A stretch of DNA of 61,236 bases from an uncultured Bacilli bacterium (GCA_934140355.1 CAKPBH010000002.1:1-61236), one strand, 5' to 3'; numbered from the stretch's first letter, positions 155 to 33,842 are shown. Translations and numbers: made by a program. Notes: a model not told the origin generated them from the sequence alone.

Positions 155-1945
155 TTACCCTTTTTTAATCAAACTTTTCCTTTTTCCTTTAGACGTCATA
201 GACTGCTGTTTAGAACCATCTTTTATCTCTAAACTAGAAGGCGATAAAAATTCCTGCTCTAATGTTTTCTTAATTTTAGGAAGAAGGTATCCATATAATT
301 GTCCAACTTGATTTTCTTTTATCTTTGAAAAAACAGGATGATTTAAGTCACCACCACATCTTAAAGTAATTATCTTCATCTCTTCTTCACTTAAATGATT
401 TAATACAAAATCAACTTGTTCTTTAGAATAAGGTTCCATTAATTGATAAATCGTTTTTAAATTTTGGGTTCGTTTTTTCTTCTTTTTTTGTAATTCTTTT
501 AAATTCTTAAGAGCTTGATCTGGATCTTGCATATATTCTGTAAAATAAGCAATTTGTTTTTCCTCTCTAATTTTTGCTAAGGCTCTTTCTTTAATTTGAC
601 GGATACCTTCACGACTCATCTGAAATTGCGCCCCTAACTCTCCTAAACTTAAAATAGGACCTCGAAAGCCATAACTCGATATTAATACTTCTTTTTCGAT
701 TAGAGTTAATGAACACGTATCTAACAGCGCTCTTGTTTTTGTAATCATGTCATGATTCACTACAATTTCTTCAGGAGATTCTTCAGTTGCAGGAATAAAA
801 TCTTCGATCTCTCTTTCATCTTCTTGTACTAATTTATTGATACTAGTTGTACCATCTTGAATCAACTGAAATCCTTTAAATTCTTCAACAACTACGGGAG
901 ATACCTCTAAATAAGTAGCAATCTCCTCAATTGTTGGTTCCCGATTTAACTTAAAACGCAAATGAGATACGGCTTTTTTATAAGTATTAATTTTGGCATA
1001 CATATGATCAGGAATTCTAATACTTCTACTTTTTTCTGTAATAGCAGCCGTAATAGCCGCTTTAATTCGATAAACCGCATAGCTTGAAAATTTAACATTC
1101 TTACTAGCATCATATTTTTCTACTGCTTTTATCAAACCAATATTACCTTCTTGAATTAAATCAAGAAGAGATAAACCATTTTGAGGATAGCGTTTTGCTA
1201 CACTAATGACTAATCTTAAATTGCTTTTAATAAAAGTTTGTCTAGCCTCTTCATTTCCTTGTAAAATTTGTTCCATTAATCTTTGCTCTTCTTCTTGGGA
1301 AAGTAAAGGAATATCTCCAATTTCTTTTAAGTATTTAACTAAAGTTTCTTCTGGCTCATAAGAAGTTTCCGCTTGTCTGTTTTTCTCCCTATTCACCTCT
1401 ATTTTTGTATCATTTAACAAGTAGTATGTATTGATGATATCAACTAATATATTATCTTTAAGCATTTTATCTAACTCCCCCATTGAAATCTGGGGATTAT
1501 ATTCACTAGAAATTACCGTTAAGGCCTCTTGACTTTTTTCATTACAAGCTAAAATTTCTATTAATTCATAAGAAGTTAAAGGATAATGATAGATACGAAG
1601 AAAAGAAGTTAAACCATACATATTTTCTAAAGCCATATTTAGAATATTACTTTCATGAAATCTTTTATTAATATAACGATTTATCACAACACCTGGCCGC
1701 CTCATCATCTCTTCTTCCGCTAATTTTGTTAGTTTTTGATTCAATTTTTCTTTGATCAAATCAAAATTTTCTTCTCTATTCTGCTCAAGTAATGCCATAG
1801 CCATTTTACTAACCTCTTGATAAAATTCTTCTTTTGAGAATATAAGATAATCAAATTTTTGATAAAGATCATCCACTATTAACTCTAACATTTGTGATAT
1901 TTGTTGTGGATTTAATTTACTTATTTTTTCCTTTAAAAAATTCAT
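155..1945 (-). CDS. Atypical long sigma-70 family RNA polymerase sigma factor (RpoD paralogue)
   Basis: 596 aa. Region 2 [20 protein letters not shown]. Region 2.3/2.4 FSSYAVYRIKAAITAAI. Region 3 SIRIPDHMYAKINTYKK. Region 4 LSLGELGAQFQMSREGIRQIKERALAKIR. Extra N-terminal extension of about 200 aa and C-terminal extension of about 110 aa. Confidence 0.8.
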   Translation of the reverse strand: MNFLKEKISKLNPQQISQMLELIVDDLYQKFDYLIFSKEEFYQEVSKMAMALLEQNREENFDLIKEKLNQKLTKLAEEEMMRRPGVVINRYINKRFHESNILNMALENMYGLTSFLRIYHYPLTSYELIEILACNEKSQEALTVISSEYNPQISMGELDKMLKDNILVDIINTYYLLNDTKIEVNREKNRQAETSYEPEETLVKYLKEIGDIPLLSQEEEQRLMEQILQGNEEARQTFIKSNLRLVISVAKRYPQNGLSLLDLIQEGNIGLIKAVEKYDASKNVKFSSYAVYRIKAAITAAITEKSRSIRIPDHMYAKINTYKKAVSHLRFKLNREPTIEEIATYLEVSPVVVEEFKGFQLIQDGTTSINKLVQEDEREIEDFIPATEESPEEIVVNHDMITKTRALLDTCSLTLIEKEVLISSYGFRGPILSLGELGAQFQMSREGIRQIKERALAKIREEKQIAYFTEYMQDPDQALKNLKELQKKKKKRTQNLKTIYQLMEPYSKEQVDFVLNHLSEEEMKIITLRCGGDLNHPVFSKIKENQVGQLYGYLLPKIKKTLEQEFLSPSSLEIKDGSKQQSMTSKGKRKSLIKKG

Positions 1946-2054: not shown

Positions 2055-2669
2055 CTATCCCCTTGGAATCTTCAAAATTTGACCAACACGCAAAAGATTG
2101 CTAGTTAAATTATTGTAACTTTTAATTTTATCTATAGTTGTATTGTATTTCTTAGCAATACTGTAAAGATTATCCCCACTTACTACTTTGTACGTCAAAT
2201 CAGTATTATTGTTTTGATTTGGAATCTTCAAAATCTGTCCAATACTCAAAAGATTAGAGTTTAATTGATTGAATTCTTTTAATTCATTAACAGTTGTATT
2301 GTATTTCTTAGCAATACTATATAAGCTATCTCCTGATTGAACAAGATAATTGATTGTACCATCACTATCTTCTTCACTACTAGTTGGTATTTTTAAAGTT
2401 TGATTAATATTTAAAAGATTGCTAGTTAAATTATTGTAACTTTTAATTTTATCTATAGTTGTATTGTATTTCTTAGCAATACTATATAAACTGTCCCCCT
2501 TTTTCACCGTATAAGAAATATACTTTTGACTTCCTTCTGTCTGAGTTGGTATTTTTAAAACTTGGTTAATACTTAAATTGTTTGAAGTCAAATGATTGAT
2601 TTGTTTTAATTCATCCACAGTTGTATTGTATTTCTTAGCAATACTATATAGACTATCTCCTGATACCAT
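2055..2669 (-). CDS. LysM-repeat protein fragment; 3-prime segment of the split amidase/LysM gene
   Basis: Begins MVSGDSLYSIAKKYNTT, i.e. inside a LysM domain. Three further complete LysM repeats follow (GDSLYSIAKKYNTT...LKIP). The ATG at 2667-2669 lies in element-derived DNA. Confidence 0.85.
   Translation of the reverse strand: MVSGDSLYSIAKKYNTTVDELKQINHLTSNNLSINQVLKIPTQTEGSQKYISYTVKKGDSLYSIAKKYNTTIDKIKSYNNLTSNLLNINQTLKIPTSSEEDSDGTINYLVQSGDSLYSIAKKYNTTVNELKEFNQLNSNLLSIGQILKIPNQNNNTDLTYKVVSGDNLYSIAKKYNTTIDKIKSYNNLTSNLLRVGQILKIPRG
2092..2484. repeat. 71-bp perfect direct repeat inside the LysM coding region (copies 2092-2162 and 2414-2484)
   Basis: aaaagattgctagttaaattattgtaacttttaattttatctatagttgtattgtatttcttagcaatact occurs twice, corresponding to LysM repeats 2 and 4. 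Confidence 0.85.
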
Positions 2670-2671
2670 TT

Positions 2672-4240
2672 TTATGGAACATTTTGAAAAGCAAAGAAAA
2701 TATCTATCGTTTTATCTTGATAAAGATCGATTTTATAAATTAAATTCATTAATAATACTCTAGTTGGATTATCGAATGATAAAAACTCATCAATATATTC
2801 TTCTAACTTTTCCTTATCTATCTCATTTTCATTGCTTGATCGATTGATTAATTCATCCATACTTCTTTTATTTTTATCTCTTTGTTGTTTTAAACTCTTA
2901 CTTATTCTTAAATATTGTTCTTCATCAATGATACCCCTTAGTTTATCCATATAAGTTTTATCTAAATTTTGAGTTAATTGATCATTTGCTATTTCTAAAC
3001 TTTTTAATTGTTTTTCTATTTTTACATCATGATCTTCAATTTCTATATTATTAATAGCACCTTTAATCTTATTTTTATCTAAATACTTTTTACAAACTTT
3101 TTTTATGTTATCTAAAATGACACTTTCTAATATTTCATAATTATTTGTATGTGTTGTACAAACATGATATTTCGAATATGTCCGATAATAATTGCAAATA
3201 GTATAACTTCTTCTTGTTTTATTTTGATATCGAATTGCTATTCTATGCCCACAATCACCACAATATAAAAGTCCATCTAATAAATAAGTTCTTTTCTTCT
3301 CTGGTCTTTTCACATTTTTAGGAAGTAATGATTGAACGTAATTAAAGGTATCTTTATCAATAATAGCCTCATGAGTATTTTCTACAATAATATAATCACT
3401 TATCTTATTTTTCACAACTTTTTTTAATTTATAATTTATCTTTTTAGTTTTACCTTGCACTGCATCACCTACATAAATTCTATTCGTTAAAATTGCCTTA
3501 ACTGTTGTATCAACCCACACCCCATATTCCTGAGAAATACAATTTCTATTTATACATTTCATATTCCATACATAGTTATAATAAGATGCCGGAGTTTTAA
3601 TTTTTCTTTTTGTTAATTCCCCCGCAATAAAATGATATGTATTACCTTTAAGTGCTAAATCAAAAATTAATTTAACAACACTTGCTTGTTCTTCATTTAT
3701 AATTAAATGATTTTTATTATTTGGATCTTTTTGATACCCAAATGGACATCTTCCCGACACGTATAATCCATCTTTCATCCTTGAATGCAGACTACTTTTA
3801 ATCTTTTTAGAAATATCTTTAGCATACATATCATTCATAATGGCTTTAAAAGGCGCTATATCATTATTAGTATTATCTATAAAAGTATCTATTCCATCAT
3901 CAATAGCAATATATCTAACATGATTATTGGGAAAATATTTTTCAATTAACTCTCCTGTACCAATATAATCTCTGCCTAATCTTGACATATCTTTAGTAAT
4001 AACCATATTAATTTTATTATCTTTAATATCTTTAATCATTCTAATAAACGCTGGCCTATCAAAATTAGTACCACTAAACCCATCATCAACATATTCATCA
4101 ACTACTTTATAATGATTCTCTTTCACATAACTACTAAGTAAAATTCTTTGACTAACAATACTATCCGATTTGTGCGTTAAATCATCTCTTGATAATCTAA
4201 GATAAAGCCCAACTTTAAAGCAATGATTCTCTTGCATCAA
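2672..4240 (-). CDS. Large serine recombinase (resolvase N-domain, recombinase domain, zinc ribbon, coiled coil)
   Basis: 522 aa. YLRLSRDD...SIVSQR (catalytic Ser region), DDGFSGTNFDRPAF, KDMSRLGRD, GRCPFGY, Cys cluster YCGDCGHRI...ICNYY...HVCTTH. SpoIVCA/phage-integrase-like layout. Confidence 0.9.
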   Translation of the reverse strand: MMQENHCFKVGLYLRLSRDDLTHKSDSIVSQRILLSSYVKENHYKVVDEYVDDGFSGTNFDRPAFIRMIKDIKDNKINMVITKDMSRLGRDYIGTGELIEKYFPNNHVRYIAIDDGIDTFIDNTNNDIAPFKAIMNDMYAKDISKKIKSSLHSRMKDGLYVSGRCPFGYQKDPNNKNHLIINEEQASVVKLIFDLALKGNTYHFIAGELTKRKIKTPASYYNYVWNMKCINRNCISQEYGVWVDTTVKAILTNRIYVGDAVQGKTKKINYKLKKVVKNKISDYIIVENTHEAIIDKDTFNYVQSLLPKNVKRPEKKRTYLLDGLLYCGDCGHRIAIRYQNKTRRSYTICNYYRTYSKYHVCTTHTNNYEILESVILDNIKKVCKKYLDKNKIKGAINNIEIEDHDVKIEKQLKSLEIANDQLTQNLDKTYMDKLRGIIDEEQYLRISKSLKQQRDKNKRSMDELINRSSNENEIDKEKLEEYIDEFLSFDNPTRVLLMNLIYKIDLYQDKTIDIFFAFQNVP

Positions 4241-4434
4241 TTAATTCTCCCTTTTTCTTGAGAATAATGCCTATTTTCAGAAGGCAATACTATCCTAAAT
4301 TTATCGCAAGTGATATTAAACCTTTGTTTAAATTCCATTTTTAATACTTCAGTGATTACTTCGTTTAAAGATTTAGCATTATCCTGAAATTTTAAATTAA
4401 CTTTATAATTAACCATAGAGTTTAATACCTCCAA
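4237..4434 (-). CDS. Small hypothetical protein upstream of and overlapping the recombinase gene (possible accessory or directionality factor)
   Basis: 4-nt overlap with the recombinase start. The likely real start is M7 at about 4416, preceded by GGAGG. No recognisable motif. Confidence 0.35.
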   Translation of the reverse strand: MEVLNSMVNYKVNLKFQDNAKSLNEVITEVLKMEFKQRFNITCDKFRIVLPSENRHYSQEKGRIN

Positions 4435-4561
4435 TTAATTCTATGGTTATGATTTTGGCTTTATGAATATTCCCTTTTCTCATAAATTTTCATGATAAAG
4501 TTCATCATCTTATTTTTCTTTTAAGGCACTAAAGCAAAAAAATCATAACCATAAGTTAATT

Positions 4562-5056
4562 TCAAATTGGAAGTATTTGAACATTATCTGGATAACCGCT
4601 CATTGCATCTATCAAAATATTTCTAACCTTATCCTGTGAAATATCATTATCAAGAGCAATTTGTTTAATATTATTACTTGCTTTCAAAAGATCTTTTCTT
4701 ATCTTAATTTCTAATGATTTAGAGATAGATTTTCTAGATAAATTTATATTTAAGTCCTCTAAAATTCTTTCATGACATTTTCTGCAAACAAACCTTCTTT
4801 TATATAGAATTAAATAGCATTTAAATTCTGCTATTTTATTATACTTAATTTTAATAGGTTTTAATCTATCATGCACTGATTTTGTATATCTATCACATTT
4901 AGGACATTTAATTTTAGAAACAGTACCTTGTAATGATATAATCTTTATTTTCTCATGATTTTCTACTTTTTCTTCAATTGATAATACCTTTACATTAGTA
5001 CCTTTTAACCCTATTAATTCTTTAACTTCTTTCATTATCACATTACTCCTTTGCAA
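4562..5056 (-). pseudogene. ISL3-family transposase, N-terminal fragment only (zinc finger and HTH; DDE domain missing)
   Basis: CPKCDRYTKSVHD...RRFVCRKCHERILEDL...RKSISKSLE...IALDNDISQDKVRNIL. Ends at ..ILPI*, where the DDE domain normally begins. 164 aa versus about 400 aa for intact ISL3 transposases. Confidence 0.7.
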
Positions 5057-5191
5057 GAATAATTAAAAATCAGCATACAAAACAGATTAAGAATACTACA
5101 TATTTTTTAAAAAATGTGATACTATAAAAATACATATGAAACTAATTTAATTATTCTGCAACTTAATTATATAATAGTTCATATGTATATT

Positions 5192-5222
5192 AAAAACAGA
5201 TGCCATTTTGACATCTGTTTTT
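5192..5222 (-). terminator. Rho-independent terminator downstream of the Doc operon (bidirectional hairpin)
   Basis: aaaaacagatg-ccattttga-catctgttttt: 8-bp perfect stem flanked by an A-run and a T-run. Confidence 0.6.
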
Positions 5223-5331
5223 ACTTTGAGCAATTCCCACTAACTCGTGTTGTTTCTTAATAAGTTGTTATATCAGATTTTACCAGATGATTTTATTTTT
5301 TGCTAATACATATATAAACATTTATATTTAG

Positions 5332-5760
5332 TTAATCTCTTTTTTTTGAGACATTACCAATAATCTTAGATTTGAAACATTCCCAGCTTTGTTCATCACC
5401 ATTACTTGCAATTGTAGCCATCGCTTCAAATAGTTCTTCTTCACTTAAATTAATTTCCATTCCGTTAATTTGATATGTCATAATCATAGCCATTAAACCA
5501 GTTCTTTTATTAACATTTTTAAAGCAATGCGTAGTAGCAATATTATACCCCAATCTACATGCCTTTTCTTCTATTGTTGGATAAACATCTTGGCCAAAAA
5601 AACTTGCAAAAATAGAATTAACTGCCCCTTGAAATAAAGCCCCTGTATTATCAATAAAACCTAATGCCTCGTTATCTTCGCTAGCAGCTGCTAATTTGTC
5701 ATGAATGAGCAAAATATCCTCTTCAGATAAAAACTCTCCTACATACCCTTCCATTTTCAT
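5332..5760 (-). CDS. doc: Doc (death-on-curing) family Fic-fold toxin
   Basis: 142 aa. Doc-type motif HCFKNVNKRTGL (HxFx[DN]xNKRT). Start overlaps the upstream stop (TAATG). Confidence 0.85.
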   Translation of the reverse strand: MKMEGYVGEFLSEEDILLIHDKLAAASEDNEALGFIDNTGALFQGAVNSIFASFFGQDVYPTIEEKACRLGYNIATTHCFKNVNKRTGLMAMIMTYQINGMEINLSEEELFEAMATIASNGDEQSWECFKSKIIGNVSKKRD

Positions 5761-6317
5761 TATTTTAGTCTCCTTAAAAGATTATTATATTTCTTTATGT
5801 TATTATTTAATAAATTATTAAATGTTTCATTATTAATTTTTGATTTATTGATAAAAGGTTTCAAGTCATTAAAATCTTTTAAATAATTATTAGATATTCC
5901 ATCATAATTATTTTCATACAATATATCAGCCAACTCAAAATCTTTATTTACACTCTTCTCAAGTATCTTAACAATTTCTTCATCACTCATTTTTTTTGAT
6001 TTTAAATAACTTAATATTATACTAAAACGGTCATAATCTAACATAATTGGAAACCATTTTATTATAGTAGAATAATCAAAATCGGCTAGTGAAGTATAAA
6101 AATTAGCACTTTTTGATAGACTATTGATGGATATTTTGTTAACGAAATCATAATTATTTTTTAAAATAAACTCTATAGTTCTATCATCAAGAAATTCTCT
6201 AAGTATCGCAATTCTTTTATTTAATTTTGTTTCTAATAATTCATTTAGTGAAATATTATTTATATTTTCTAAATTATTTCCCATTACTATCCCTCCAAAC
6301 TGTTTTAACTGTAACAT
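5760..6317 (-). CDS. Hypothetical protein translationally coupled to Doc (candidate non-canonical antitoxin)
   Basis: Likely start is M12 at about 6284, preceded by GGAGGG. Helix-rich, Asn/Lys-rich, about 174 aa. No Phd/YefM-like motif recognised. 1-nt stop/start overlap with doc. Confidence 0.4.
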   Translation of the reverse strand: MLQLKQFGGIVMGNNLENINNISLNELLETKLNKRIAILREFLDDRTIEFILKNNYDFVNKISINSLSKSANFYTSLADFDYSTIIKWFPIMLDYDRFSIILSYLKSKKMSDEEIVKILEKSVNKDFELADILYENNYDGISNNYLKDFNDLKPFINKSKINNETFNNLLNNNIKKYNNLLRRLK

Positions 6318-6599
6318 ATTTATTAAAATTTGTCAAAATAATTCTAGCAATGGATAGTGTAAAATTGTTTTGACTGTACAAAAAAAGAGTTTACCTCATT
6401 AATTCAAGATATAGTGAAAGAAAAAGAATAATTGAAAGATATAAAAACTATCTTATAAAATATTGAAAATAGTTTAAAAATACATTGAACATTAAAGTAT
6501 GTTCTTCTGTAGAATCACATATCTCACATAATGTAGCAAAATATTTTTCATATGAATAATAGAAATGATAACGCTATGAAATATCATTATTTTTTATCA

Positions 6600-7907
6600 T
6601 CATCTTAATAAATCTAATATATCTTCATATTTAACTATCATTTTTTCTTGAGTTTTCGTATCTTCTATTTCATAATGATTACCATCAAATTGATTCCCTA
6701 ATATGATCATTTTAGGCGTTCCTAATACAGAAACATCTTTTATTCTATTACCAATACTCAAATTTTCTCTATCATCAATGATAGCATTAATATTATTCTG
6801 TAGTAAATAATGATATAGCCTTTCTCCCTCTTTTTGATTTTTTTCACTATAAATTATTTGAACCTTGTATGGAGCAATGTCATATGGTAGTGAAAATCCT
6901 TTGATTTTATCATTTTCTCTAATTACATTACTCTCGATTAAACAAGCAATAATTCTTCCTAAACCAATTCCATAACATCCCATATAATATGGTTTTTTCT
7001 CTCCATTTTCATCTATATAGAAAAGCCCCATACTATTAGAATATTTTGTTCCCAGTTGAAAATTATTTCCTAACTCAACAGTACTATATTCTTTCAGATT
7101 TTTAATATCACTTACTCCTAATTGTTTAAGATATTCATCTTTATTATCAAACGCTAAAACTTCTTTATTAATACCAATATCATTTTTCTCATCATAAAGC
7201 GTTTTATCTTCTCCCAAATTAGTGATTGCTTGAAACTCCTCAGCAACTTTACCACCAATAACCCCATTATCACTAATAGTTGGTATAATCTTAATTCCAA
7301 GTCTTTTAAATATATTTAAATATACCTGATGCATTAATTCGTACGTTTTTTGCATATCTTCTTCTGTTTTATCAAAAGAATAAGCATCCATCATAACAAA
7401 TGTTCTTGGTCTAAATAGATAACCTCTAGCTCTAATTTCTTTTCTAAATTTTTCGCCAATTTGATAATAAATAGCAGGCAAATTTTTATAAGAAGATAAT
7501 CTATTATTTCCAAATATAGTAGCACATTCCTCTGCAGTTGGCGCAAGTCCATATTCTCCTAAATTATTACTTATGGTAAACATGATATCCCCCTCTTTAG
7601 TGTAAGCATCCCATCTACCAGATTGTTCCCATATTTTTCTTGGCTGAATCTTTGGAAATTCTACTTGAATACACCCTGCCTTATCTAACTCATCAATAAT
7701 AATATTTTCTACTACTCTTTCTAGTTTTGTCCATAAATTGCCATAACCATAAATCCCACTTTCAAATTGATATAACTCTCCTAGTTTCATCAAAATATCT
7801 TGACCAGAATAATTAGTATCAATATCATTTAAATTAATTTTTTTAATATTTAATCTGCTTAATCTCATTTTACTCATCCTTTCTTCAACAAAAAAAGAAT
7901 GACACAT
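6600..7907 (-). CDS. proS: Prolyl-tRNA synthetase, bacterial-like but lacking the INS editing domain
   Basis: Class II motif 2 region FRKEIRARGYLFRPRTFVMMDAYSF. Motif 3 GCYGIGLGRIIACLIE. Anticodon-binding C-terminus. Likely start is M14 (about 7868) after AAAGGA, giving 422 aa. The upstream T-box carries a CCU specifier. Confidence 0.85.
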   Translation of the reverse strand: MCHSFFVEERMSKMRLSRLNIKKINLNDIDTNYSGQDILMKLGELYQFESGIYGYGNLWTKLERVVENIIIDELDKAGCIQVEFPKIQPRKIWEQSGRWDAYTKEGDIMFTISNNLGEYGLAPTAEECATIFGNNRLSSYKNLPAIYYQIGEKFRKEIRARGYLFRPRTFVMMDAYSFDKTEEDMQKTYELMHQVYLNIFKRLGIKIIPTISDNGVIGGKVAEEFQAITNLGEDKTLYDEKNDIGINKEVLAFDNKDEYLKQLGVSDIKNLKEYSTVELGNNFQLGTKYSNSMGLFYIDENGEKKPYYMGCYGIGLGRIIACLIESNVIRENDKIKGFSLPYDIAPYKVQIIYSEKNQKEGERLYHYLLQNNINAIIDDRENLSIGNRIKDVSVLGTPKMIILGNQFDGNHYEIEDTKTQEKMIVKYEDILDLLR

Positions 7908-8095
7908 AAGGAGTCATAAAGACGGTGCCATCCTTTTATTTTACTTAATTACGATAACGGCTATTTCACCGGAAATGTTTTCATTTCACTCCGAAGGTAG
8001 GAATTAAATAGTATCATAACTTGTTCACACTATACCAAGCTCACTTTTATGCTTAACCAATTAATATTCCTTCATCACTGATTTGACCTTATTGT
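7885..8095 (-). promoter_or_regulatory. T-box riboswitch leader with Pro (CCU) specifier, controlling proS
   Basis: Read on the minus strand: GA/K-turn region cagtgatgaagga; distal loop tagtgtgaac; specifier aattCCTAccttcgg (about 7999-8001); F-box ccgtta (about 7955-7960); T-box aaaggatggcaccgtc (about 7921-7936); then hairpin atgac-N9-gtcat followed by a T-run. Coordinates are +/-1 nt. Confidence 0.7.
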
Positions 8096-8204
8096 ATCAC
8101 ATTATATTGTTACTCACAAGCCCCTTTATACAAATAAGTATAAATTCATGATTATTTCTTTCTCACATGCCTACTCTTATATTTTTATATTTTGCATAAA
8201 TGAT

Positions 8205-9065
8205 TTATCTCCACTCTTCAAATCCCATTTTATTTTCAAAATTAGTAATAATAACTTCCTCTACCTTTCCTCTTTTTCTTCCACTAGCACTAATACTTCT
8301 TTTTGCTTCGATGATATGAATATGAAAATCTTTATATAATTCATTTACTAAAGTAGTATTATGATTAGATAACATGACATAACAGCCTCTATCGGATAGT
8401 TCTTTAAATACTTTAGCAAGCCTTCTTTGTTCTTCTTTCCCAAAACCTTCTTCAGTATAACTATTAAATGTTTTAGTATCTGAATCGTATGGTGGATCAA
8501 AATAAATGAAATCTCCCTTTTTAGCATCTTTTACAGATTCTTCAAAATCAACCGATAGCACCTTGACATCATTATAATTTAAATACCCACATATCACCCC
8601 TAAATTTTGTCCTTCATAAGTATTTACTTTAGTTTTCTTTCCAAAAGGAACATTAAATTCATTTTTACTGTTAACTCTATATAATCCATTAAAACATGAT
8701 TTATTTAAATAAATAGTGCGAGCGGCTCTTTTCACATCCGTTAGTCTATTGAATTTCTTTTTATCTCTATCTAAATTTCTTATTTCATAATAATACTTCT
8801 CCGAATGTTCTGCTTCATGATGGTTCAATTCTTTGCACATCGCTTCAAATTTTTGCCCATCCTTAATACATTCATAAACATTCATCAATTCTTTGTTAGA
8901 ATCATTAATTACTGCCTTTTTAGGAGATAACTCAAACAACAATGCGCCTCCCCCTACAAATGGTTCATAATAAGTATTAAACTCGTCTGGAACATATTGT
9001 TTTAATTTATCTATTATCTGTCTTTTTCCTCCTGCCCATTTTACAAATGGTTTTCCTTTAATCAT
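8205..9065 (-). CDS. dam: DNA adenine methyltransferase, Dam family (GATC-type), orphan
   Basis: KPFVKWAGGKRQII, EPFVGGGALLFEL, catalytic FIYFDPPY. No adjacent endonuclease gene. Confidence 0.9.
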   Translation of the reverse strand: MIKGKPFVKWAGGKRQIIDKLKQYVPDEFNTYYEPFVGGGALLFELSPKKAVINDSNKELMNVYECIKDGQKFEAMCKELNHHEAEHSEKYYYEIRNLDRDKKKFNRLTDVKRAARTIYLNKSCFNGLYRVNSKNEFNVPFGKKTKVNTYEGQNLGVICGYLNYNDVKVLSVDFEESVKDAKKGDFIYFDPPYDSDTKTFNSYTEEGFGKEEQRRLAKVFKELSDRGCYVMLSNHNTTLVNELYKDFHIHIIEAKRSISASGRKRGKVEEVIITNFENKMGFEEWR

Positions 9066-9312
9066 TCCTATTCACCTTATCTCTCTATCACTAATCTTAC
9101 TCAATTACCTTTTTTAAATGCTTAAAAAATTATTGATTTTTTAAGAACTTATTTCCAAATTTTTCTAAAATTACCCTAAGGAAAAAATTTTTCCTCATCA
9201 CTTTCTTAAGAATAATTCCAAAAGCTTTCTATCATTATACCATGCAAAAAGACATTTTTCTTCAAAATGCCTTAATTTTTGTTATATTTTCTGGAATATT
9301 ATTCATGATTTC

Positions 9313-9942
9313 CTATTTATTTCCCATAAAAAGAGTATCACCTGATTTAACAATATAATAACTACTATCAATAGGTTGATAAGGAATATTTAAATAACTT
9401 GTCAGCGCAATAACAATCGCTTCACCTACTTCTTTTAGATTATTTTTTAAAAAATTAGCTTCCTTCTCATTATCAATATTTCCATAATAAATAATAATAC
9501 TTTCATTATTTTTAGTATCTCTGATTAATTGATTATAATCAAGAGCCGTATCACTAGGCAATCTTCTTTGATAGTATTTTTCCACTTTTAAACCAACAGT
9601 ATTTAATTCATCCGCTATTTTTTTCGCTAAAGTACTACTATTTCTAAGAGCATAAACAATTTCAGCATTCTCTCCCCCAGCAGTCAAGGCATTAGAAATA
9701 ACAATAACATCATTTCCTTTTCCATAAGTTGATGTAATTCGACTAACCCGATCATCCATATTTATAGTCTCATCACTATCTCTAGTTAAAGAAGTAGGAA
9801 CACCATAAGCACGAAGACGATCATAAATATATTTACTTAACTCTAAATTATAATTTTTTTCCGTAATTCCATTAACACTACTTCCAATATCTTCCCCACC
9901 ACGATAAGCATCAATAACAACTTTCTTATCTACTCTATCCAT
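9313..9942 (-). CDS. Amidase_3-like (N-acetylmuramoyl-L-alanine amidase fold) fragment; 5-prime segment of the split gene
   Basis: VVIDAYRGGEDIGSS..GITEKNYNLELS...VISNALTAGGEN resembles CwlD-type amidases, but the His zinc ligands appear to be replaced. Ends SSYYIVKSGD (start of a LysM), then 7 element-encoded residues TLFMGNK*. No signal peptide. Confidence 0.75.
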   Translation of the reverse strand: MDRVDKKVVIDAYRGGEDIGSSVNGITEKNYNLELSKYIYDRLRAYGVPTSLTRDSDETINMDDRVSRITSTYGKGNDVIVISNALTAGGENAEIVYALRNSSTLAKKIADELNTVGLKVEKYYQRRLPSDTALDYNQLIRDTKNNESIIIYYGNIDNEKEANFLKNNLKEVGEAIVIALTSYLNIPYQPIDSSYYIVKSGDTLFMGNK

Positions 9943-9985
9943 AAAATATCACCTAATGTATTTTATGTTTTTTCAAAGAGAAAGG

Positions 9986-10921
9986 TTATATTTCAATAGT
10001 TGTTTCATCAATAAAGTGATAACTCGTTTTATATTTTAATTCCCTCATCAAACGAAATAATGCATCATCTTTAGCTTTAGCTTCTAACATAATATCAATA
10101 GAAATAGGATATTTTTTTATCATTTCTAAAAATAAAATAAAAGCATCACTATCAATATAATCATTATGACTTCTTATTTCTTTTTTGTTTTTAGGACTAC
10201 TAAAATGAATTTTAGGAGGAATATTTTTATTTTTCCAAGTTAAAAATACTTGTTCTAAATAATCTTCCAGCGGCTCTTCTGTCGGATTGCAACAGTGATG
10301 ATGATAATCTAAAACAACAGGAATATTAAGTTTAGAAGAAAGATAAAGACAATCCTTAATATTAAAAATTTTATCATCATTTTCAATAGCAATAATTTCT
10401 TGTAAATGTTTGGGAAGTTTTTTAAAAGTATTAATAAATCTAGATAAAGATAAATCTTTACCAAAGGTATTTCCCCCTACATGAAGAAGTAAAATTTTTT
10501 CATCAATCTTCATTGCTTTCAACAATTGGTAATGATATTCCAAAAGAGCAATGGATGAAGCAATAACCTCTTTTCTAGTACTATTTAAAACACAATATTG
10601 ACTGATATGAAAATCAAAACGCATCTTAGTTTTCTTCAAAATTTCTTCTATTTTTTTATAAAACGATAGATAAGGGGTAATGTACGAAAAAGAAACAGAT
10701 GGTGCAGTAGCAAGAGGAATTAAACTAGATGAAGCTCGATAGAAATGAATGTTATTTCTTTGATTATAAATTAATGTTTCGATTAAAGCATTAAGGTTAG
10801 ATTTAATAATCCGATCTAACTTTTCATAGTTTTGTTCCTTCTGAAAAACAGTTAGTGGATAAGGGGTAGAAGTAGAAGATTTAATAGAGGAACTAATAGC
10901 AACATAACCTAAGCGTATCAT
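9986..10921 (-). CDS. uvsE: UV damage endonuclease UvsE/UvdE
   Basis: Collinear with B. subtilis UvsE from memory: IRLGYV, FYRASSSLIPLAT, LLHVGG, IENDDK, LDYHHH, KIHFSSPK, IRSHNDYID, IMLEAKAKDDALFRLM. Confidence 0.9.
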   Translation of the reverse strand: MIRLGYVAISSSIKSSTSTPYPLTVFQKEQNYEKLDRIIKSNLNALIETLIYNQRNNIHFYRASSSLIPLATAPSVSFSYITPYLSFYKKIEEILKKTKMRFDFHISQYCVLNSTRKEVIASSIALLEYHYQLLKAMKIDEKILLLHVGGNTFGKDLSLSRFINTFKKLPKHLQEIIAIENDDKIFNIKDCLYLSSKLNIPVVLDYHHHCCNPTEEPLEDYLEQVFLTWKNKNIPPKIHFSSPKNKKEIRSHNDYIDSDAFILFLEMIKKYPISIDIMLEAKAKDDALFRLMRELKYKTSYHFIDETTIEI

Positions 10922-32071: not shown

Positions 32072-32749
32072 TTAGCCACTTTTTAATGCTTTTTGCAAAA
32101 TTTTTCTTTTCTGTTGAATAGAAAAACGATAACGATAATGATTTTTAGGAATATTTGAATAAAAAGCATTCATTTTTTCTAAGTCTCGTTTTAGTTTTTG
32201 TCGAAAAAGGGGTGAATTTTCTTTTTGTAAACAAGGCCCTAGATATAACTGCTTTTTCGTATAAAAACGATATCCCCTCCCAAAAACAATAATCGTATAA
32301 ATGATATTAGCATCCATTACAAGAATTTCTTTTTTAATATAATAGCCTAAACTAGTTACCTTTTTTCTTAAAAAATCTAGATCATTATTGCTTTGGATGA
32401 TCAGGGTGCTAATATTTTTTAGTTTTTGATAACCTTGATTTAAGATTCCTACAATGGTATGTGCACCCATGCCAGAGATAATTACGGTTGTATTTTTTTG
32501 GGGGATGATGTTTTCTAAGCCATTACTTTGAATTGGCTCTATTTTTTCTTCTAAGTGGTATTTCTTTATGTTTTTTTTAGCATTGTTTAAGGCATTTTCA
32601 TTAATATCGCTAGCAATAATCTGAGCGTTTTGATATTTTTTCGCAAGAGCAATAGCTAAAAGTCCATGGTCACAGCCAATATCAATATAGTTTTCATTTT
32701 CTTCGATTAAATTGGCAAGACACTGTAATCGTTTGGATAATTTAGTCAT
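32072..32749 (-). CDS. trmK: tRNA (adenine22-N1)-methyltransferase TrmK
   Basis: [31 protein letters not shown]. Conserved position downstream of rpoD. Confidence 0.85.
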
Positions 32750-33842
32750 TTAAGAAATCCTTTAGTTTTCTACTTCTTGATGGATGTCTTAATTTTCGTA
32801 AAGCTTTGGCCTCAATTTGTCTGATTCTCTCTCTAGTTACACCAAACATTTGCCCTACTTCTTCTAGGGTTTTGCATGAGCCATCATCAAGACCAAAACG
32901 TAATCTTAAGACTTGTTCTTCTCTTTCTGTTAGCGTTAATAAAACATCGCTAATTTCGTCTTTTAATAGTTCATGAATGGTATATTCTTCAGGAGACATA
33001 CTTCTTTCGTCTTTAACGAAATCTCCTAAGTGAGAATCATCTTCTTCTCCAATTGGTGTTTCTAAGGAAACTGGATCTTGAGCAATTTTAATTACTTCTC
33101 TAATTTTTTCAACAGGCATTCCCATTTTCTTAGCAAGTTCCTCATCGGTTGGTTCACGATTTAATTCTAGAGTTAATTGTCTTTGATATCTAGATAGTTT
33201 ATTAATTGTTTCTACCATATGAACGGGAACACGAATGGTTCTAGCCTGATCAGCAATAGCTCTAGTAATGGCTTGTCTGATCCACCAAGTGGCATAGGTT
33301 GAGAATTTATATCCTTTATTCGCATCAAATTTCTCAACGGCTTTCATTAGCCCGATATTTCCTTCTTGAATTAAATCAAGGAAAAGCATTCCTCGACCAA
33401 CGTATCTTTTTGCAATACTAACGACTAGACGAAGGTTTGATTCAGCTAAGATGTTTTTTGCCTCTTCGTCTCCTGCAGCAATTCGTTCAGATAATTTGGT
33501 TTCTTCTTCTAGGGATAATAAGCTAATTCTTCCGATTTCTTTTAAATACATCCGAACAGGATCATTGATGGATAAATCTTTAGCAATGGTGTTATCTTTT
33601 AGGATATCTTCAATATCTCCTCCAACATCTTCATCTGAGTCATTTCCTACTTCTGATTCGTCGTTTACGATTTCAATTCCTGCTTCAATTAGGGAATTAT
33701 ATAAATCATCTAGGGAATCACTATCTAAATCTAGTCCTTTTAGGCCATTAGCTAGTTCTTCATAAGTAATAAATCCTTTAGTTTTTCCTTTTTTAATTAA
33801 TTCTTCTTTTCTTTGTTCAAATGTTTTGATTTCTTCAATCAT
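32742..33842 (-). CDS. rpoD: Primary RNA polymerase sigma factor RpoD/SigA
   Basis: [91 protein letters not shown]. Confidence 0.97.

Follow-up and report, generated by a model that had tools for sequence, protein, structure and literature searches.

A probable large-serine-recombinase intervening element at a LysM-coding repeat of an amidase-like gene in an uncultured Bacilli bacterium

Sporulation genes can be interrupted by DNA elements whose precise excision by a large serine recombinase (LSR) rebuilds the gene in the terminal mother cell, as described for skin in sigK (SpoIVCA in B. subtilis; CD1231 with CD1234 in C. difficile) and for SPbeta in spsM (SprA with SprB) (PMC5025042, PMC4191935). 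In the C. difficile skin element (skinCd), the recombinase is constitutive and only the directionality factor is developmental; this factor is a 72-amino-acid (aa) orphan with a sigma-E promoter, its start site lying 14 nt upstream of the start codon (PMC5025042). The gin element of Bacillus cereus ATCC 10987, which splits gerE, relies on the recombinase GirC and the 42-aa GirX (PMC5595907). As a rule, LSRs combine a symmetric attachment (att) site of ~40-50 bp, attP, with a less symmetric one, attB, and a non-palindromic dinucleotide sets the polarity of the reaction (PMC12286644); the symmetric attP with cleavage at its central dinucleotide is general (PMC5595907). Here, we describe an integrated element of 6,682 bp (2661..9342, minus strand) in a stretch of 61,236 nucleotides from an uncultured Bacilli bacterium (GCA_934140355.1, CAKPBH010000002.1:1-61236), the whole of which is called the window hereafter. 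The element ends with an LSR gene and lies inside a gene that codes for an Amidase_3 domain and LysM repeats. That the whole represents an LSR element recombining at the att sites set out below, and behaving as skin and gin do, is in our judgement a fairly probable reading.

The ends of the element read atagactatctCCtgataccatttttatgg at the left junction (2649-2678) and ccataaaaagagtatcaCCtgatttaacaat at the right junction (9324-9354), and the attL and attR junctions, as we interpret them, span 2644-2677 and 9324-9358. An earlier note on this DNA had proposed that both ends share CCTGAT and that, once joined, they form a near-palindrome around a central CC, and direct reading of the sequence bears this out. 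CCTGAT stands at 2659-2664 and at 9341-9346, and the predicted crossover dinucleotide CC (GG on the gene strand) is found at 2659..2660, beside the recombinase gene, and at 9341..9342, at the cargo-end junction. The element arms, which would be the attP half-sites, are tgataccatttttatgg at the recombinase end (2661..2677) and ccataaaaagagtatca at the cargo end (9324..9340). Joining 9324-9342 to 2661-2677 yields a predicted attP core of 36 bp, ccataaaaagagtatca-CC-tgataccatttttatgg (as a 40-mer, CCATAAAAATGGTATCAGGTGATACTCTTTTTATGGGAAA), whose 17-nt arms are complementary at 15/17 positions, with the axis exactly on the non-palindromic CC and with three further complementary positions farther out. 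The recombinase-end arm holds the TTA at 2672-2674, which is the minus-strand TAA stop codon of the recombinase, as had also been noticed earlier, and the cargo-end arm encodes on the gene strand the tail ..DTLFMGNK* of the truncated amidase open reading frame (ORF). Such a symmetry of 15/17 around a 2-nt centre occurs at no natural site of the 61-kb window and was reached by 0/2,000,000 random chimeric joins of window positions, the best of which gave 14/17 (35 cases). In the same vein, a degenerate pattern covering both junctions, which has no match in 100 shuffles, is found in the window at these two places only, even when 2 mismatches are allowed. Chance is therefore excluded as the source of the symmetry of the joint.

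The gene split by the element runs on the minus strand. Its 5' part (9343..9942) codes for the Amidase_3 domain and the first codons of LysM1, and its 3' part (2055..2660) for four LysM repeats; in the integrated state, they are seen as an Amidase_3 ORF at 9313-9942, which ends in ..YYIVKSGDTLFMGNK*, and as an ORF of 204 aa with the four LysM repeats at 2055-2669, which begins with MVSGDSLYSIAKKY. Deletion of 2661-9342 fuses these two ORFs in frame into a protein of 401 aa (Amidase_3 + 4xLysM) and rebuilds the first LysM repeat (..YYIVKSG|DSLYSIAKKY..). Indeed, uninterrupted orthologues from public metagenomes are exactly 401 aa long and 82-83% identical to the reconstructed protein. One of them, from a Hadza gut metagenome (L003), is located directly downstream of uvdE as in the window, and its nucleotide alignment with the reconstructed gene is gap-free over the junction (TTGTTAAATCA GG AGATAGTC vs TTGTTAAATCA GG GGATAGCC), which shows the boundaries of the element to be correct within the limits of the shared core. 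The predicted attB in the gene is TATTATATTGTTAAATCA-GG-AGATAGTCTATATAG (as a 40-mer, TATTATATTGTTAAATCAGGAGATAGTCTATATAGTATTG). Its two host halves are now found at 9343..9367, which encodes ..SSYYIVKS, the residues entering LysM repeat 1, and at 2634..2658, which encodes ..DSLYSIAKK of the same repeat. Neither the split gene nor its LysM-coding target, nor the very large family described below, had figured in the earlier note.

Two presumed zinc ligands of the Amidase_3 domain of the window lineage (9343-9942) are substituted, H to R where GHGG has become YRGG (IDAYRGG) and H to A where SNHIN has become SNALT (ISNALTAGG). The same two substitutions are present in the uninterrupted orthologues P0009 and P0001, and the domain is probably inactive regardless of the element. 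A separate observation concerns the 3' part of the gene in its integrated state. The palindrome has two mismatches, one of which gives rise to an in-frame ATG within the arm (AAAAATGGTATCAGG; 2667-2669, minus strand), which starts 2 nt past the recombinase stop codon and at which relatives have ATT. The 204-aa LysM-only protein could be translated from this ATG, possibly coupled to the recombinase.

The contexts of related elements were fetched through the recombinase alone and fall into seven independent element lineages, namely the window (= L028), L005/6, L007-9, L010/11, L029-32, L033-36 and L037, in 7/7 of which both junctions were mapped. The recombinase has thousands of homologues, the best 120 being 74-100% identical and 514-527 aa long; across the seven lineages, the recombinases are 75-94% identical and the elements measure 2.9-6.7 kb. 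All of them (7/7) follow a common plan in which host sequence is followed by cargo, an ORF of 55-63 aa, the recombinase and then immediately by LysM-coding host sequence, and, wherever the 5' part could be recovered, the split gene has kept its two halves as intact ORFs. On the gene strand, the cargo-end junction of the family reads host ..(Y-x-V-K-x) GG (A/T/G)GATACnnTTTTTATGGGGAATAATGA.. and the recombinase-end junction ..AATGTTACATAAAAAnnGTATC(A/T) GG AGAT.. before the host sequence resumes. The recombinase-end arm is ACATAAAAAttGTATC(A/T) in all relatives and the cargo-end arm is (A/T/G)GATACnnTTTTTATGG. In all nine loci analysed, the reconstructed attP joints are symmetric around GG at 13-15/17 positions, whereas the reconstructed attB sites reach only 3-6/17, and the label attP-like used in the earlier note, rather than plain att, was right in view of this low symmetry of the empty site.

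The relatives also allow the crossover point to be placed. Among them, the stretch over which the two junctions agree can be as short as 2 bp or as long as 10 bp, being ATCAGG in the window, GG only in L005, CAGGAGATA in L007, GGAGATACAT in L010 and GGAGA in L033. A mismatch between the junctions lies directly 5' of GG in L005, L010, L029, L033 and L037 and directly 3' of it in the window and L005, and GG (CC on the plus strand of the window), which sits on the symmetry axis, provides the only bases common to both junctions in all lineages. Since the flanking bases differ between junctions in some relatives and only GG is constant, we place the crossover at GG/CC. The CCTGAT pointed out earlier as the shared block is a real identity, but its extent of 6 bp is partly coincidental, only CC being obligatory across the relatives. 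Placement of the crossover by half-site symmetry has been confirmed by sequencing for other LSRs, whose recombinase domain reads the inner ~12 bp of a half-site and whose zinc-ribbon domain reads the outer segment (PMC12286644). Across the relatives, variation is greatest at arm positions 7-9, counted from the centre, which is consistent with such a two-part half-site. From this comparison of junctions, we regard it as highly probable that the att sites and the CC crossover are correctly placed.

At the level of the protein, GG represents the first two bases of the glycine codon in the LysM 'GD' motif, and precise deletion of the elements restores in-frame ORFs in five different host genes. 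In three of them, which code for amidases of 401, 453 and 405 aa, the break lies in LysM1; the fourth codes for a 467-aa amidase and is broken in LysM3 (L033), and the fifth for an M23-peptidase with 2xLysM of 243 aa (L010, 7908-8378 and 11581-11874). As judged from these genes, the target is the start of a LysM-coding repeat and not one particular gene. The recombinases of L010 and L033 are 94% identical despite their different target genes, which indicates recent movement. Besides, the identity of the recombinases tracks that of the host genes (75-80% vs 45-48% for the window, 84-87% vs 63-68% among the other lineages), as would be expected from long co-residence. In the IMG/VR viral collection of 2.9 million contigs, the family is nearly absent, with two contigs only, in which the elements are found beside phage genes and not among them. 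The open-access literature yielded no LysM-targeting serine recombinase and no amidase gene split by an intervening element; the recombinase family is very large and no description of it was found in the literature searched.

Several observations on potential or neighbouring targets may be added here. In a Halanaerobiales metagenome-assembled genome (L002, CAZOON010000414.1, 1377-1406), the exact 30 nt of the predicted window attB occur in an unrelated LysM gene, and potential landing sites are therefore present well outside the host clade. Within the window's own gene, LysM3 contains a sequence closely resembling the target (at position 927 in the reconstructed ORF, inside 2055-2660), the left half of which matches at 15/17 positions and the right half of which is almost identical; it is a likely secondary site. 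The M23-LysM gene of L010 is situated on an IMG/VR-viral contig, 4 kb downstream of a phage tail-endolysin block, and is preceded by two small membrane-protein ORFs.

The same amidase gene is also the target of a second, unrelated LSR element (L029, 6368-6372; L032, ~6370; L037, ~7620). This element is inserted at the codons of the GGGDGAE motif of Amidase_3 (junction ..CCATCGCGA GG TGGCGATGG..), encodes recombinases of 524-529 aa and carries Fic, TIR, Bro-N or methylase cargo. In L029, L032 and L037, it leaves the gene in three pieces; the sister strains L030 and L031 do not have it. The presence of two LSR families in one gene would fit a gene that is dispensable in the germ line.

The recombinase gene of the window (2672..4237, minus strand) codes for 521 aa from an ATG, or 522 aa from a TTG at 4240. 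Its product matches the Pfam families PF00239 Resolvase (residues 12-158), PF07508 Recombinase (183-308) and PF13408 Zn_ribbon_recom (320-380), all above the cut-offs. Its stretch GLYLRLSRDD aligns with ALYERLSRDD of TnpX, which puts Ser17 on the serine of the catalytic motif, and TnpX (2MHC, E 4e-26) is the closest solved structure of the catalytic domain; the search of solved structures gave no match reaching beyond this domain. The domains, the repair of the ORF upon deletion and the palindromic joint conserved in the relatives all support the interpretation of the junctions as LSR att sites.

Upstream of the recombinase, an ORF of 59 aa (MVNYKVNLKF...; 4237..4416, minus strand) has its stop codon overlapping the recombinase ATG (TGATG). 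Translation probably begins with the ATG at 4416, which a GGAGG ribosome-binding site precedes by 8 nt. A corresponding small ORF that overlaps the recombinase start codon is present in 7/7 elements, with 37-58% identity to the window copy. Residues 1-28 are kept in all seven as MV(K/N)Y(K/N)VN(L/F)KF..(S/P)LN(E/Q)(I/V)(I/V)TE(V/I)LK and the C-terminus varies. The small ORF has no Pfam family match, a database search limited by its word index returned 3 homologues, and an AlphaFold model, uninformative in itself, shows a single helix at residues 17-43 with a predicted local distance difference test score (pLDDT) of 72. Known directionality factors are likewise tiny orphans, such as GirX (42 aa; PMC5595907) and CD1234 (72 aa; PMC5025042), and the 59-aa protein is a plausible candidate for such a role.

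In the mechanism that we propose, the recombinase would introduce 2-nt staggered cuts at GG/CC in both partner sites, followed by subunit rotation and religation in a conservative reaction whose orientation would be fixed by the non-palindromic dinucleotide. Excision would produce a circle with the attP joint and a chromosome with attB, in which the 401-aa gene is restored in frame. The element would then behave as the sporulation gene-intervening elements skin, gin and SPbeta. A sigma-E-like promoter would activate the operon of small ORF and recombinase in the mother cell, the 59-aa protein would act as, or help as, the directionality factor, and excision would rebuild a late, sigma-K-type, signal-peptide-less amidase-like gene comparable to cwlC. 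In the present case, excision is predicted and not observed.

The timing proposed here is suggested by promoter-like boxes and by the nature of the host genes. A putative sigma-E-like box, by the B. subtilis consensus, is found upstream of the small ORF (4438..4466, minus strand; TCATAAA-N14-CATAGAAT), and its CCATAGAAT part is kept in 7/7 elements (CCATAGATT in L007). In the strict sigma-E pattern, the upstream element located 14 nt 5' of CCATAGAAT is TCATAAA (window) or TAATATT (L029 and L037); this strict pattern, which follows the same consensus, has 2 matches in 122 kb (both window strands), one of which is the box at 4438..4466. A putative sigma-K-like box, again by the B. subtilis consensus, ends 16 nt upstream of the amidase ATG (9959..9986, minus strand; AC-N17-CATAAAATA). 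With the form AC-N16/17-CATA(A/C/T)A(A/C)TA, it is present in the window, in L030 and L033 and in the uninterrupted orthologues L003 and L040, where it precedes the ATG by 16-25 nt, for a background of 14 pattern matches in 122 kb, and L005 has the CATACAATA part alone. As judged by eye, the amidases contain no recognisable signal peptide or N-terminal hydrophobic stretch; CwlC is likewise not known to have a signal peptide. CwlC and CwlH are sigma-K-controlled amidases involved in mother-cell lysis in B. subtilis, and there are two candidates in C. difficile (PMC517825, PMC3789822). In the window, ysxE-like and spoVID-like genes are found just upstream; in related loci, a SleB-type Hydrolase_2 gene flanks the target, CotZ and DUF421 genes are found nearby, and SPOCS_spoVID-N matches are weak or faint. 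The second LSR element that splits the amidase gene in some strains and the intact halves of the split gene point in the same direction. The sigma-K-like and sigma-E-like boxes together with the signal-peptide-less amidases suggest excision in the sporulation mother cell, although for a developmentally programmed event of this kind we consider the chances to be evenly balanced.

Besides the recombinase and the small ORF, the element carries a set of cargo genes, all on the minus strand and all co-directional with the split host gene. In gene order, these code for a Dam-type (D12 class) N6-adenine DNA methyltransferase (8205..9065), a class II aminoacyl-tRNA synthetase of 435 aa that resembles short proline-tRNA ligases (6600..7907), a protein of 185 aa (5760-6317), a Fic/Doc-family protein of 142 aa (5332-5760) and an N-terminal fragment of an ISL3-type transposase with the Zn ribbon only (4562..5056; 164-aa ORF), before the 59-aa ORF and the recombinase. 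The 185-aa ORF, upstream of the Fic/Doc ORF, overlaps it by one base, and this pair could be a toxin-antitoxin-like module. The ISL3 ORF is followed by no catalytic domain and is absent from the relatives; it is the remnant of an insertion sequence (IS) that had entered the element. The short class II aminoacyl-tRNA synthetase (422-435 aa) recurs as cargo in two lineages, the window and L029-L032 (8108-9376, 422 aa), in the latter of which it adjoins a radical-SAM gene, and it might serve as a resistant paralogue or belong to a small biosynthetic or defence module. As cargo is co-directional in all seven lineages, a transcript started at the host promoter could extend over the full length of the element and into the recombinase gene.

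With respect to gene content, no mobilisation, relaxase, conjugation, resistance or origin-of-transfer (oriT)-associated genes were recognised in the window element or in the Pfam-annotated cargo of the six relatives, and the window element contains no phage genes for structure, replication or lysis. A megablast search with the entire element returned nothing from 50,697 phage and 72,556 plasmid records. Around the element, the window has the gene content of an ordinary chromosome, with rpoD, dnaG, queA, smc, ligA, pyk and gpmI. The only Rfam match in the window was one distant tRNA. A sigma-70 promoter scan was uninformative in this AT-rich DNA (80 matches vs 60 expected), and no terminators were found in the window. 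The gene that lies immediately downstream of the split one (155-1945, minus strand) encodes an RpoD-like sigma factor of 596 aa, with an N-terminal extension of ~200 aa and a lysine-rich C-terminal extension; the window also has a normal 366-aa rpoD at 32742-33842.

A number of results weigh against the excision of the element or, more specifically, against its developmental programming. No contig with this organism's empty site or attP joint was found in the metagenome, genome and viral collections. This search used one degenerate 30-mer covering attL, attR, attB and attP, whose only matches, one in a metagenome and one in a genome, were unrelated LysM genes; the family-consensus pattern of the attP joint had no match in viral contigs, where the arm pattern returned only the two known contigs. 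The retrieved homologues also include no uninterrupted allele from the same species for any of the host genes, the best being 55-83% identical, and the one closest to the window gene, at 83%, therefore belongs to another species. Concerning regulation, both sigma consensuses are those of B. subtilis and AT-rich DNA yields many weak matches, the strict sigma-E pattern fits only 3/7 elements, and the M23-LysM target beside phage genes (L010) has no sigma-K-like box. The ysxE-like and spoVID-like genes just upstream both score below the NCBIfam cut-offs, and no core sporulation genes were found in the rest of the window. The small ORF would be co-translated with the recombinase, whereas the factors of skin, SPbeta and gin are under separate control, and TnpX, the closest sequence relative, is not known to need a directionality factor. 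Finally, since two presumed zinc ligands are lost, the restored product of the window lineage is perhaps not an active amidase, and it may bind peptidoglycan without cleaving it.

These points lead to the question of whether the element is instead an ordinary mobile island, for which the LysM site is merely a sequence resembling attP, which knocks out a dispensable gene and which excises sporadically for transfer. We see this as a genuine possibility, if a less probable one than the excision of a skin-like element. It would account for recombinases that are far more conserved than their host genes, for the nearly identical enzymes of L010 and L033 residing in an M23-LysM gene and in LysM3 of an amidase, respectively, for a variable and accessory-like cargo (DpnII restriction-modification, TIR, Fic/Doc, Dam methylase, aminoacyl-tRNA synthetase paralogue), for the kinship with the transposon resolvase TnpX, the closest characterised relative, and for an amidase domain that looks catalytically dead in the window lineage. 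Against it speak gene halves that are intact and frame-compatible wherever both were recovered, recombinase identity that tracks host-gene identity, sigma-K-like and sigma-E-like boxes located exactly where the developmental model needs them, the lack of transfer, mobilisation or replication genes in every element and the near absence of the family from the viral collection. The intact gene halves speak equally against a fossil, in which genuine former att sites would have outlived a dead recombinase, or have died themselves, and the gene would be permanently split. We consider this improbable, as the recombinase ORF is full length with all its domains and the catalytic motif, and neither the small ORF nor its ribosome-binding site nor the box upstream shows any damage. 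The two mismatches of the window arms with the family consensus (TGG/CTC vs TTG/CAA) could be taken as signs of death, but they affect positions 7 and 8, counted from the centre, which belong to the segment (7-9) where apparently healthy relatives differ; that no recombinase of the set diverges more than that of the window and that the ISL3 fragment attests to past decay inside the element remain in favour of a fossil.

Taken alone, the window would fit equally well with a DDE transposon, CCTGAT being a 6-bp target-site duplication, the arms imperfect terminal inverted repeats and the ISL3 fragment a trace of the transposase. This interpretation was rejected on the relatives, whose shared block varies between 2 and 10 bp (from GG in L005; GGAGATACAT in L010), since a transposase with a fixed stagger would give a duplication of fixed length. 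Moreover, no element contains an intact transposase, the ISL3 fragment is unique to the window, and the sole gene conserved at the end of every element is the serine recombinase, so that a DDE transposon appears very improbable. Even less credence can be given to a coding coincidence, by which the palindrome would arise from the C-terminus of the recombinase and an arm that mimics LysM. Both arms do overlap coding sequence, and the cargo-end arm (G-D-T-L-F-M-G) resembles the LysM sequence G-D-S-L-Y-S-I. Nevertheless, only 6 nt of the recombinase-side arm are coding, and this explanation is effectively refuted by the random joins, none of which reaches 15/17, and by a symmetry that is held in seven lineages despite their differing host flanks.

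The interpretation put forward in the earlier note is hence supported by the present analysis; the mechanism itself is textbook and the att site alone is of modest note. What we describe is a known kind of system, a non-phage LSR gene-intervening element, whose target, the beginning of a LysM repeat in a cwlC-like gene, is new. At the family level, the interest lies in the targeting of a motif, in two LSR families that exploit one gene, in co-oriented defence cargo and in a possible coupling to terminal differentiation. Motif targeting explains how one recombinase family can be found in different genes and in different repeats. If excision is developmental, the cwlC-like amidase would join sigK, spsM, spoVFB, spoVR, gerE and yabG among the sporulation genes rebuilt by rearrangement, and the phenomenon would extend to uncultured low-GC (about 26%) bacteria of gut metagenomes. 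Besides, this work offers a predicted LSR site set, consisting of the 36-bp core attP, the attB and the GG crossover, together with natural attP/attB pairs from seven lineages, which, with the thousands of recombinase homologues, could be useful for orthogonal integrases and for the study of how LSR site specificity evolves. For annotators, it is a warning that 'truncated' Amidase_3 and LysM-only ORFs beside such elements are halves of one gene.

A broader and more speculative view, to which we attach rather little confidence, is that these elements are minimal 'DNA introns' which, homing to the opening codons of a LysM repeat (..Y-x-V-K-x-G|D-S/T-L..), stay parked in signal-peptide-less genes of the lysis type and excise upon terminal commitment. 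The trigger might be a sigma-E-type promoter or read-through from the host gene, the latter being conceivable because every cargo gene is co-directional with the split gene. The split gene would then offer the defence cargo (restriction-modification, TIR, Fic/Doc) a safe harbour, the M23-LysM target may be a phage lysin, and the second LSR family would exploit the same gene at its GGGDGAE codons. Lysis after excision might even release circles for uptake by neighbours.

How, then, does this LysM-targeting family compare with described recombination systems? Its recombinases have the same domain architecture and follow the same att-site logic as phage integrases (Listeria A118/LI, Bxb1, phiC31), from which the family is set apart by the lack of linked phage genes and by its near absence from IMG/VR. 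TnpX, the closest solved relative of the catalytic domain (2MHC), and TndX belong to Tn4451 and Tn5397, respectively. Both enzymes cross over at a 2-bp GA between imperfect inverted-repeat ends, in a target that resembles the circle joint. TnpX works in both directions and is not known to require a directionality factor, and its gene lies at the element end, where formation of the circle builds a promoter. In Tn4451 and Tn5397, resistance genes (catP, tetM) are accompanied by functions for mobilisation or conjugation. In contrast, the recombinase gene described here reads outward through the element end, the dinucleotide is GG and there is no mobilisation gene.

The proposed mode of action is closer to that of the sporulation elements. 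Skin and SPbeta are prophages or prophage remnants of 14-134 kb, whereas the elements of the present family measure a few kilobases (2.9-6.7 kb) and contain no phage genes, and their hosts are putative spore formers. The box upstream of the small ORF has a geometry similar to that of the sigma-E promoter of the skinCd factor; unlike in skinCd, the small ORF and the recombinase would here share one promoter. The closest parallel is gin, which is also a small non-prophage element with an LSR and with imperfect inverted-repeat att sites and a crossover dinucleotide predicted, as here, at their centre. In gin, a late mother-cell gene is split and a very small, motif-less protein sets the direction of recombination, two features whose counterparts in the window are a presumed late gene and a small ORF of putative function. 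The two systems differ in that gin possesses three recombinase genes and encodes girX apart from girC, while the 59-aa ORF overlaps the start of the recombinase, and in that excision was demonstrated experimentally for gin and is predicted here. They also differ in what they interrupt, gerE in gin and an Amidase_3-LysM gene in the window, and, more fundamentally, the present family targets a repeated domain motif that is found in several genes.

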